Assembly (NCBI GenBank): GCA_964016885.1
Contig: OZ024740.1
Coordinates: 205,902,001 to 205,966,000 of the forward strand
Direction of reading: 5' to 3'
From: Eledone cirrhosa
Lineage: Eukaryota
Length of the DNA stretch: 64,000 bases
Within the stretch, counting starts at the first letter, position 1; every line of letters starts with the position of its first letter. The translations under genes and the position numbers were made by a program. Below, one piece after another: positions 56,121 through 59,534 of this stretch. The notes beneath the pieces are model-generated. The model ran no database searches. It saw only the letters and a list, made by a program, of their open reading frames with translations, and was not told the origin of the DNA.

Positions 56121-57146
56121 CCTATTTCCACGCTATAAGGTATAGCAAGTAAATATTATGCTCCCTGCCCAACGCATGCGGTCAAGCCGTTAAAGTGACA
56201 CACACGCAAATCAGGTCGCTGATAAAAGCTGGATATTATAAACATGTCGAATTGCCACTAAAATTAGCGGCATTATTCAACGTTTTGTTCTCTACGTGAG
56301 GAGAATAAATTATAGAAGTGGATGGATACTTCAACAGGTACAATGTACTTGTAGAAATATTCAAGTTGTTTATAATACATGTGGTTCAATGGCACTAATT
56401 CGAGATACCAGAACAATATAAAAGTAGCGAAACAAACGGTTATTAAACAATTTTCTAAATAAATTAAAAAATGATTAAATAATCACCTGTTCAGATGCTG
56501 TTACCGACGGTTTCATCATTCGTATATATATATATGTATATATATATATGTATATATATGTATATATATATATGTATATATATATATGTATATATATGTA
56601 TATATATGTATATATATGTATATATATATATGTATATATATATATGTATATGTATATATATGTATATATATATATGTATATATATATATATATATATATA
56701 TATATATATATATATCTATATATGTATATGTATATGTATATATGTATATATATATGTATATATATATATGTATATGTATATATGTATATGTATGTGTATA
56801 TATATATGTATATATATATATGTATATATATATATGTATATATATATATGTATATATATGTATATATGTATATGTATATATGTATATATGTATATGTATA
56901 TATGTATATATATATATGTATATGTATATATGTATATATATATATGTATATATATATATGTATGTATATATATATATATATATATATGTATATATATATA
57001 TATATGTGTATATATATATATGTATATATATATATATATATATATATATATATATATATATATATATATATATATATTATGAAGAGAGAAGAAACATTTA
57101 GATATAATTAGTAATAAAATGTATCATACCTAAACTGCTCCTAAAT

Positions 57147-57234
57147 TCCTCGACTACGTAGTTTCGTGGCATAAACAAAAACAATATATCAAAGATATAG
57201 AGTCCTTGCGAGGTCTGCCGACTTATCAAGAGGA
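57147..57234 (-). ncRNA. Type I hammerhead ribozyme, U3-A8 core variant
   Basis: Reverse complement of 58072-58159. Confidence 0.8.
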
Positions 57235-57737
57235 TACCTCATTTTACTAGTCTCAAGAACGCGTCTACACGACGTGAGAAAGAATCCCAAAAGGCGGAGG
57301 GGGAGATAGTCACGCGATATAACGGTCGAGAAACAGAGCTAAGCCTCTTATAACCACGAAGAAAATACCACGGAGGCGGAGGGGGTATTCATATCGAGGC
57401 CGTAGAAGAGGTAGTGAAGAAGGCGAGAAGTATGAGTAATGGAAGCTTTCCAGTTGTCCTCACACCTCAAAGATTGCTCGACCAGAGGGAGTTATTAATA
57501 TATTTAGAAACACACAGATACATGCGGACACACACATATATACATGAATGCATCCGCACCCAACTGTGAGTTAAGGGTGCCAACTTCACCGATGTTGCTC
57601 AATGAATGACTGGGACAGACCAATTCAGTTTGAACCAGACTGAACCAGTATCAGAGTTAAAAATACATTATGAAGAGAGAAGAAACATTTAGATATAATT
57701 AGTAATAAAATGTATCATACCTAAACTGCTCCTAAAT

Positions 57738-57825
57738 TCCTCGACTACGTAGTTTCGTGGCATAAACAAAAACAATATATCAAAGATATAGAGTCCTTGC
57801 GAGGTCTGCCGACTTATCAAGAGGA
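57738..57825 (-). ncRNA. Type I hammerhead ribozyme, U3-A8 core variant
   Basis: Second tandem copy, 591 bp from the first. Confidence 0.8.
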
Positions 57826-58071
57826 TACCTCATTTTACTAGTCTCAAGAACGCGTCTACACTTCCATTACTCATACTTCTCGCCTTCTTCACTACCTCTT
57901 CTACGGCCTCGATATGAATACCCCCTCCGCCTCCGTGGTATTTTCTTCGTGGTTATAAGAGGCTTAGCTCTGTTTCTCGACCGTTATATCGCGTGACTAT
58001 CTCCCCCTCCGCCTTTTGGGATTCTTTCTCACGTCGTGTAGACGCGTTCTTGAGACTAGTAAAATGAGGTA

Positions 58072-58159
58072 TCCTCTTGATAAGTCGGCAGACCTCGCAA
58101 GGACTCTATATCTTTGATATATTGTTTTTGTTTATGCCACGAAACTACGTAGTCGAGGA
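58072..58159 (+). ncRNA. Type I hammerhead ribozyme, U3-A8 core variant
   Basis: UCCUC-UUGAUAA-GU(C)GGCA...UGCCAC-GAAAC-UACGUA-GUC-GAGGA. Confidence 0.82.
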
Positions 58160-59534
58160 ATTTAGGAGCAGTTTAGGTATGATACATTTTATTACTAATT
58201 ATATCTAAATGTTTCTTCTCTCTTCATAATGTATTTTTAACTCTGATACTGGTTCAGTCTGGTTCAAACTGAATTGGTCTGTCCCAGTCATTCATTGAGC
58301 AACATCGGTGAAGTTGGCACCCTTAACTCACAGTTGGGTGCGGATGCATTCATGTATATATGTGTGTGTCCGCATGTATCTGTGTGTTTCTAAATATATA
58401 TATATATATATGTATATATATATATATATATATATATATATGTATATATATATATATATATATATATGTATATATATATATGTATATATATATATATATA
58501 TATATATATATATGTATATATATATATATATATATATATGTATATATATATATATATATATATGTATGTATATATATATATATATATATATATGTATATA
58601 TATATATATATATATATATGTATATATATATATGTATATATATATATATATATGTATATGTATATATATATATATGTATATATATATATATATATATATG
58701 TATATATATATATATATATGTATATATATATATATATATATGTATATATATATATATATATGTATATATATATATGTATATATGTATATATATATGTATA
58801 TATATATGTATATATATATATGTATATATATATATGTATATATATATATATATGTATATATGTATATATATATGTATATATATATATATATGTATATATG
58901 TATATATATATGTATATATATATATATATATATATGTATATATGTATATATATATATGTATATATATGTATATATGTATATATATGTATATATATATGTA
59001 TATATATATGTATATATATATGTATATATATATATATATGTATATATATATGTATATATATATGTATATATATATGTATATATATATGTATATGTATATA
59101 TATGTATATATATATGTGTATATATATGTATATATATATGTATATATATATGTATATATATATGTATATATATATGTATATATATATGTATATATATATG
59201 TATATATATATGTATATATATGTATATGTATATGTATATGTATATATGTATATATATATATGTATATATGTATATATATATATGTATATATATATATGTA
59301 TATATATATATGTATATATATATATATGTGTATATGTATATATGTATATATATATATGTGTATATATATATATGTATATATATATATGTGTATATGTATA
59401 TATGTATATATATATATGTGTATATATATATATGTGTATATATATATATGTATATATATGTATATATATATATATATATACATATGTGTGTATATATATA
59501 TATGTATATATATATACATATATATATATATAGC

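Follow-up and report, generated by a model that had tools for sequence, protein, structure and literature searches.

How did three copies of a predicted hammerhead ribozyme, two in tandem and one inverted, come to lie between tracts of (TA)n in this genome of 3.0 Gb? The question is raised by positions 57078-58399 of the window, by which is meant the whole stretch of 64,000 nucleotides that was analysed. The original prediction described three UUGAUAA hammerheads with a spacing of 591 nt in a tandem plus inverted layout, and all of its coordinates hold. It missed, however, that this arrangement is a Penelope-type insertion with two fixed ends. The insertion is probably a two-armed copy of a high-copy non-coding retrozyme which was mobilised in trans by a Neptune-type Penelope-like element (PLE). 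The features on which the argument draws are the following.

57078..57861, minus strand: left arm, 784 nt or 1.3 units, 5' truncation at position 473 of the unit, 3' end at site A (+74 to +80 past the predicted cut)
57861..58399, plus strand: right arm, 539 nt or 0.9 unit, 5' truncation at position 298 of the unit, 3' end at site B (+241 to +245)
57152..57742, minus strand: one full 591-nt unit, predicted cut to predicted cut
57147..57234, minus strand: type I hammerhead with U3-A8 core, predicted cut between 57152 and 57151
57738..57825, minus strand: type I hammerhead with U3-A8 core, predicted cut between 57743 and 57742
58072..58159, plus strand: type I hammerhead with U3-A8 core, predicted cut after GUC, 58154
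58072-58076/58155-58159, plus strand: stem I of this last motif
58077-58083, plus strand: its core UUGAUAA
58084-58090/58135-58140, plus strand: its stem II
58091-58134, plus strand: its loop II
58144-58153, plus strand: its palindrome
58215..58234, plus strand: site A in its internal occurrence, UCUCUCUUCAUAAUGUAU; the family has one of its fixed 3' ends here, and pairing with the cut junction is predicted
58385..58399, plus strand: site B, GUGUUUCUAAAUAUAU, the other fixed 3' end, which lies about 165 nt past site A (this distance is the tail)
56523..57077: left-hand flank, a target tract rich in (TA)n
58400..59532: right-hand flank, likewise a target tract rich in (TA)n

The two arms meet head to head at a junction with an overlap of 1 nt, and (TA)n tracts enclose the insertion on either side. 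Of the three hammerhead motifs, a pair spaced by 591 nt is in the minus arm and the third is in the plus arm. The unit itself has a G+C content of 42% and is non-coding, its longest stop-free stretch being 49 aa in sense and 71 aa in antisense. In contigs of public runs (TA)n loose ends were found at 57498 and 57663, which are both of the end sites, so that the ends of the family are no artefact of this assembly.

Other repeats lie in the same window. A 457-nt tandem repeat of 3.5 units (54934-56522), whose 3' end at +191 abuts (TA)n, represents a second retrozyme-like family, with canonical CUGAAGA type I hammerheads on the minus strand at 55126-55206, 55583-55663 and 56040-56120. A 630-nt dimer at 60607-61870 has the cores of its CUGAUGA type I hammerhead at 60945 and 61575, on the minus strand, and its 3' end at +270; the long stem III of this hammerhead would permit action as a monomer. 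A short head-to-head insertion at 52341-52750 has C3-G8 hammerheads at 52516 (minus) and 52656 (plus) and ends at +132 and +43. Near-perfect short palindromic inserts are placed at 59534-59657 and at about 63300-63410, and by eye each arm of the former contains a GAAA-stem III-GUC hammerhead 3' half. In addition, LINE-type reverse transcriptase (RT) frames are found at 48322-51546 and 52746-54335. One of them has an endonuclease-like frame upstream (by eye) and the other a PHD finger, and the PHD-finger RT has several relatives within the window.

The motif of the 591-nt unit reads UCCUC-UUGAUAA-GU(C)GGCA-(44 nt)-UGCCAC-GAA-ACUACGUAGU-C-GAGGA. Stem I is UCCUC/GAGGA, stem II is GU(C)GGCA/UGCCAC with a single bulge, and stem III is the self-complementary 10-mer ACUACGUAGU. 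The GUC site predicted at 58154, the palindromic stem III and the insertion in stem II, all part of the original prediction, are present, the insertion being a loop II of 44 nt which folds into a hairpin (-11 kcal/mol). The hammerhead core consensus was found, with a Watson-Crick pair at 3-8, GAAA and GUC; stems I and II form, and stem III forms in the predicted dimer. In the monomer stem III would have at most two pairs and a four-base loop, and the active monomer fold lies 2.4 kcal/mol above the best fold. Folding of the motif and its flanks as a single strand returned an inactive structure (z 0.26). That the palindrome would suit a dimer, as had been suggested, is borne out by modelling, since the unconstrained fold of two copies is exactly the double hammerhead (-58.9 versus 2 x -22.9 kcal/mol). 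For the motif at 57738..57825 the dimer partner would be the copy 591 nt downstream. The double fold agrees with the dimer mode described for metazoan type I motifs (PMC4209133, PMC7229834). Against activity, a recent preprint by Li et al. (10.64898/2026.07.22.740005) reports no cleavage for 8 of 9 predicted retrozyme dimers of Xenopus. The predicted 591-nt circle folds at -173 kcal/mol (z -6.6 against 40 shuffles), and here, as in the fold of the alignment consensus, stem I does not form and the site A sequence is predicted to pair with the cut junction. Within 58063-58076 the CCUC of stem I can form a hairpin with a GAGG that lies upstream of it (GAGG-UAU-CCUC). This hairpin is present in most subfamilies and, as modelled, is a possible off-switch for the monomer.

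A hammerhead descriptor of our own, applied to the window and the fetched loci (overlapping, and chosen for the motif), gave 113 family matches in 277,462 bases and 0 on the reversed sequence. C3-G8 hammerhead repeats are also plentiful nearby, with 11 matches of the same descriptor. In 54000-62000 no hammerhead reached E<=1 in Rfam. Since the canonical C3-G8 hammerheads of the 457- and 630-nt repeats were overlooked as well, the miss is not peculiar to U3-A8. The other Rfam matches were discarded, being microsatellite-driven miRNA matches below their gathering scores and one tRNA-like match at 60140 just over its score.

The family is large and its 3-8 pair is fixed. A 24-mer from the 3' half of the motif has 7,444 exact matches in the genome and its reversed control has 0, so the motif is not a product of chance. 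With positions 3, 7 and 8 left free the pattern gave 6,021 matches, 5,996 of them U3-A8; 12 cores were without U3 (6 C, 4 G, 2 A) and 13 without A8 (7 G, 5 U, 1 C), which amounts to single changes at about 0.2% per site. Copies with CUGAUGA and unlinked single mutations had been named beforehand as the observation that would speak against a conserved double change, and none of the 6,021 cores is CUGAUGA or otherwise C3-G8. A looser pattern returned 7,324 U3-A8 matches (control 6) against 2 C3-G8 matches (control 1), the latter two unrelated to the 591-nt family. Subfamilies that are 70-80% identical retain the core, with 15 of 16 aligned rows U3-A8 and one U3-G8. Within the family there is no covariation at 3-8. 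The search for a C3-G8 sister family gave 0 matches with one pattern, and with another 4, which are deletion copies of the 591-nt family. A stem III search for a distinct family sharing this stem was equally unproductive: from its 52 matches 30 were fetched, and these were the 591-nt family, its older subfamilies and truncation junctions, with one match apparently unrelated. Another deletion copy (L178, minus strand near 1500-1387) has two hammerheads 113 nt apart and might be a miniature unit.

As to covariation of the stems, there is one two-sided change in stem I, from U-A to C-G in 2 of 16 rows, and 95.6% of the cells of the hammerhead alignment are paired, with a covariation score that is not above that of shuffles (248/500). 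Changes in predicted pairs tend to keep G-U (33 versus 12). This bias is no clean evidence of structural selection, because unpaired sites show an A>G/C>T skew of a similar kind (21/112 versus 9/111). The motif is less variable than the remaining unit (5/44 versus 170/547 sites, p 0.005), a difference that is inflated by the choice of loci with exact motif patterns. A-to-I editing was also considered and set aside, the template-level private variants (7 A>G versus 3 T>C) being too few to decide.

The original prediction read the U3-A8 core as a compensatory double change that argues for selection on catalysis. The fixed pair stands. The double change is nevertheless probably no event of this element, given that PLE families share it and that no C3-G8 sister was found. 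At least three autonomous-type PLE families of this genome, described below, have U3-A8 cores, and on this sequence evidence the core was likely inherited within a local lineage of PLE hammerheads and did not arise afresh as a compensatory event. As for selection, conservation supports the inference whereas the swap itself does not. In the other U3-A8 families the stems differ in sequence yet pair, and the survival of U3-A8 across families with different stems, as read from their sequences, is a better argument for function than the swap. Nor is the swap new, and it should cause no surprise. A natural covariation from C3-G8 to U3-A8 is reported in PMC3088659, which cites earlier activity in vitro, and about 1,300 U3-A8 motifs linked to Schistosoma PLEs are reported in PMC4209133. 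The latter paper also states that its first descriptor overlooked these motifs, in agreement with the expectation that a search for CUGANGA would miss the present one.

To describe the insertions, 30 pattern loci, 53 fetched stretches and the window were merged into 68 loci, all fetched family loci coming from the first 61 Mb of contig C1. Thirty-three were flagged as two-armed; L014 and L083 were dropped as separate insertions, which leaves 31, and a duplicate composite in L023 was left out. At this last locus (G000:C1:19618714-19625252) a two-armed insertion recurs almost unchanged, junction included, at a distance of 2,554 bases, either by local duplication or as an assembly artefact. Throughout the set the 5' ends vary and the 3' ends are fixed, at about +76 (A) or +241 (B) after the cut. 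Among the 31 abutting two-armed insertions 29 combine A with B, none has A twice or B twice, and 2 have one arm ending elsewhere. If the ends were independent, the chance of 29 mixed pairs in 29 would be near 2e-9. The 35 single-armed insertions divide into 17 with A, 16 with B and 2 with another end, and 94 of 101 outer ends abut (TA)n. Sites A and B are also used in the subfamilies that are 70-80% identical.

On sequence criteria the 591-nt family belongs to the metazoan non-LTR retrozymes, since its tandem units are non-coding and contain a single hammerhead each, LTRs are absent, and the copies are many and dispersed. An ORF for RT and GIY-YIG, which defines an autonomous PLE, is absent from a unit in which the longest stop-free frame is 71 aa. 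Three marks of PLE mobilisation were found, namely an inverted 5'-truncated arm, a one-sided tail and an AT-rich target. An inverted 5'-truncated copy, a one-sided tail and a (TA)n bias are reported for PLEs in PMC8557442 and PMC3846280. Moreover, according to PMC11167929 the PLE protein, a predicted dimer, cuts both strands of AT-rich DNA, and its RT starts at two internal sites and on both strands, with a spacing that equals the genomic tail. The 591-nt family, with its tail of 165 nt, agrees with these descriptions. Its mobilisation by a PLE is well supported.

The insertion probably formed as follows. A tandem copy would be transcribed, and adjacent hammerheads are predicted to pair through the palindromic stem III and to cut at GUC, releasing a 591-nt monomer. 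Ligation would close this monomer, and in the resulting circle site A is predicted to mask the junction by base pairing and so keep the ribozyme off. The RT/GIY-YIG protein of the PLE would nick both strands of a (TA)n tract, and two cDNAs would start at the fixed internal sites A (about +76) and B (about +241). Each cDNA would extend around the template by a variable amount, about five units at most, before the two cDNA ends join head to head, mostly over an overlap of 0-10 nt.

Unit homogeneity bears on the template. Among units at least 90% identical the divergence is 0.37% inside one arm, 0.35% from arm to arm and 2.3% from one insertion to another, and both arms exceed 591 nt in 6 of 29 insertions, the largest having about 5 + 3 units (L065). 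Variants private to one insertion were present in all covering units in 25 cases, in some in 1 case and in one unit in 69 cases, and 14 of the 25 are common to both arms. These shared variants indicate that both arms derive from one template lineage which passed through a single unit, as rolling reverse transcription on a circle predicts for the sequences. Gene conversion or assembly polishing could also make units homogeneous. A 621-nt self-closing contig, one of those made from six public runs of unrecorded kind, was rejected as a sign of the circle, tandem DNA giving the same result.

The same mobilisation by a PLE could have used one or two uncut linear multimeric transcripts, with the hammerhead as a weak or passive passenger and no circle. 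In PMC11167929 uncleaved RNA was the dominant substrate, catalytic mutants inserted normally in vitro, and hammerhead cleavage, dispensable for insertion, needed the protein; transcripts of young homogeneous arrays would also give homogeneous arrays, and the present analysis met with no RNA circle. A new variant, however, can be fixed in all units of an array only by way of a bottleneck of one unit (25 private variants in all units versus 1 in part of them), and the core is kept across the subfamilies that are 70-80% identical while the modelled dimer folds into the active form. We consider a linear template quite improbable. Still less probable is an inverted arm made by self-priming or fold-back of one cDNA, or by DNA rearrangement, with tandem units arising from unequal crossing-over. 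Self-priming on an antisense template is the explanation of head-to-head PLE structures in PMC3846280, and unequal crossover is proposed in the preprint of Li et al.; 14 of 29 insertions are geometrically compatible with fold-back and palindromic junctions occur at L057, L060 and L070. The other 15 of the 29, that of the window included, cannot be a fold-back copy of one arm, and one A plus one B in each pair (29 versus 0) would be left unexplained. Against a satellite-like origin, the copies are dispersed, short and variably 5'-truncated. That the unit is the pLTR of another autonomous PLE and the insertions its 5'-truncated copies is scarcely credible, for although most PLE copies are indeed 5'-truncated pLTR pieces (e.g. 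the L118 family) and the loci inspected are about 95 of several thousand, arms that pass the unit boundary run into an identical unit and never into an ORF at the loci examined, and 50 GIY-YIG loci hold no homologue.

Returning to the copying of a circle by a PLE, the two starts invite a more specific proposal, in which a dimeric Neptune-type enzyme would prime on the two strands of a single DNA break to copy the hammerhead-made circle, and pairing with the cut junction would fix the proximal start. This complete scheme is speculative and we think it unlikely as a whole. Junction pairing like that of site A is predicted for the 591-nt retrozyme, the L118 PLE, a second PLE family and two other hammerhead repeats. 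The proximal end is among the best junction partners in these five families, ranking in the top 11% of windows for the 591-nt family, in the top 6% for the L118 PLE and as the best window in the other three. A further family runs counter to this. No such pairing was found for one proximal end, nor for the majority of the ends that are distal or unassigned. Given that the duplexes are short and AT-rich and the families few, the pairing is only a working idea.

Which PLE could have moved the retrozyme? A GIY-YIG search produced 150 scored matches from 10,597 candidates, and 50 loci were fetched. A near-intact candidate has a 938-aa frame with RT, CX4CxxC and GIY-YIG, CX4CxxC preceding GIY-YIG, and belongs to a young family with open frames of 844-938 aa (L118:2273-7850 on the minus strand, L119, L123, L127, L129). 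The CX2-5CxxC linker motif is given for the Neptune/Nematis clade in PMC8557442, and the C-terminal GIY-YIG with this linker would place the L118 PLE, by its sequence, with the Neptune/Nematis type. Its hammerhead, UUGAAAA, has 11,684 motif matches and is U3-A8 in all 48 matches from 30 overlapping loci. The family has TA flanks, and 34 of 42 ends lie at +82 or +150, mostly one of each, which gives a tail of 68 nt. Many tiny two-armed pLTR insertions belong to it as well, most of its copies being 5'-truncated pLTR pieces. Its proximal end is as far from the cut as site A is and has a similar pyrimidine run, although other families have similar pyrimidine-plus-TA ends.

Nevertheless, an L118-type PLE as the specific helper of the 591-nt retrozyme is a tentative assignment, somewhat more doubtful than not. 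No homology was found between the 591-nt unit and the L118 pLTR (local score 23 versus 21 +/- 2 in shuffles), and in the 50 GIY-YIG loci the unit gave low-complexity matches only, bar one inserted copy. The sequence TTTCTAA in common with site B was rejected as a link to the helper, being absent from older subfamilies. At L037:2104-2224 a tiny two-armed PLE pLTR insertion touches, with its site-A end, an arm of the 591-nt family at the arm's truncated 5' end, with pyrimidine microhomology and no TA tract between them. It was not accepted as a PLE-retrozyme chimera, since two successive insertions explain it equally well. In 213 kb of flanks there are 5 PLE motifs versus 0.8 expected, an excess that fits a shared TA target.

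Two PLE families beyond L118 have cores UUGAAAA or UUGAUAA. A related family of many copies (L096, L098, L104, L111, L114, L116, L124, L136) combines U3-A8 with GCAA in place of GAAA (position 13), and GCAA at this position is expected to impair hammerhead catalysis. The third family (L067, L089-L091, L093, L099, L108, L110, L112, L134, L135) has the UUGAUAA core, as in the 591-nt retrozyme, a CCGG stem III, a weak stem I and a 3' end near +180 to +200.

With the metazoan non-LTR retrozymes, as they are described in PMC7229834 and by Li, Clavereau and Pollet (2026), the 591-nt family shares a non-coding tandem unit with one type I hammerhead, a G+C content below 45%, thousands of dispersed copies and a short palindromic stem III predicted to need a dimer; dependence on PLEs has been proposed for them, as it is here. 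The unit of 591 nt is longer than the RNAs of 170-400 nt in PMC7229834 and falls inside the consensus range of 51-972 bp of Li et al. The family differs from these retrozymes by its U3-A8 core, its structured 44-nt loop II, the absence of any homology found with a helper pLTR, and its two-armed head-to-head insertions with two fixed ends. The word "inverted" does not occur in the main text of PMC7229834, and among the papers listed by a search of the literature none is on a U3-A8 retrozyme or on two-armed retrozyme insertions.

The Cercyon PLEs of Schistosoma mansoni (PMC4209133) show the same 3-8 covariation in about 1,300 matches. As reported there, however, these motifs are mostly single, heterogeneous and minimal and lie in pLTRs, whereas the 591-nt family is young, homogeneous, tandem and non-coding, and its palindromic stem III has 8 bp. 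Insertions of EN+ PLEs of the Neptune/Nematis group (PMC8557442, PMC3846280, PMC11167929) are described with the same partial tandem and inverted 5'-truncated copy, a tail at one end, two internal RT starts downstream of the hammerhead and (TA)n targets. Unlike them, the 591-nt family has no ORF, and both of its arms may be multimers. Its tail is about 165 nt, compared with 30-40 nt in EN+ PLEs and 68 nt in the L118 PLE.

Two consequences follow for other systems. Hammerhead censuses should take into account that the 591-nt family and one PLE family together make about 19,000 motif copies which the CUGANGA pattern misses. Furthermore, the mover of animal retrozymes, the circle as template and the inverted structures and tails of PLEs are given as open questions in PMC8557442, PMC11167929 and Li et al. 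(2026), and on the mover, the template and the PLE structures the 591-nt family brings sequence evidence in the form of its A+B ends, multimeric arms and shared private variants. A young candidate helper with a long open frame is present in the same genome, which makes the model accessible to the in vitro PLE assay already published. If pairing with the cut junction does set the proximal start, PLE hammerheads would help to place reverse transcription, and the near-intact U3-A8 PLE and the 591-nt passenger would be a pair of helper and cargo. The main value of the family lies in its testable helper and in its insertions, whose sequences are evidence for PLE-driven two-strand copying of a probably circular RNA.
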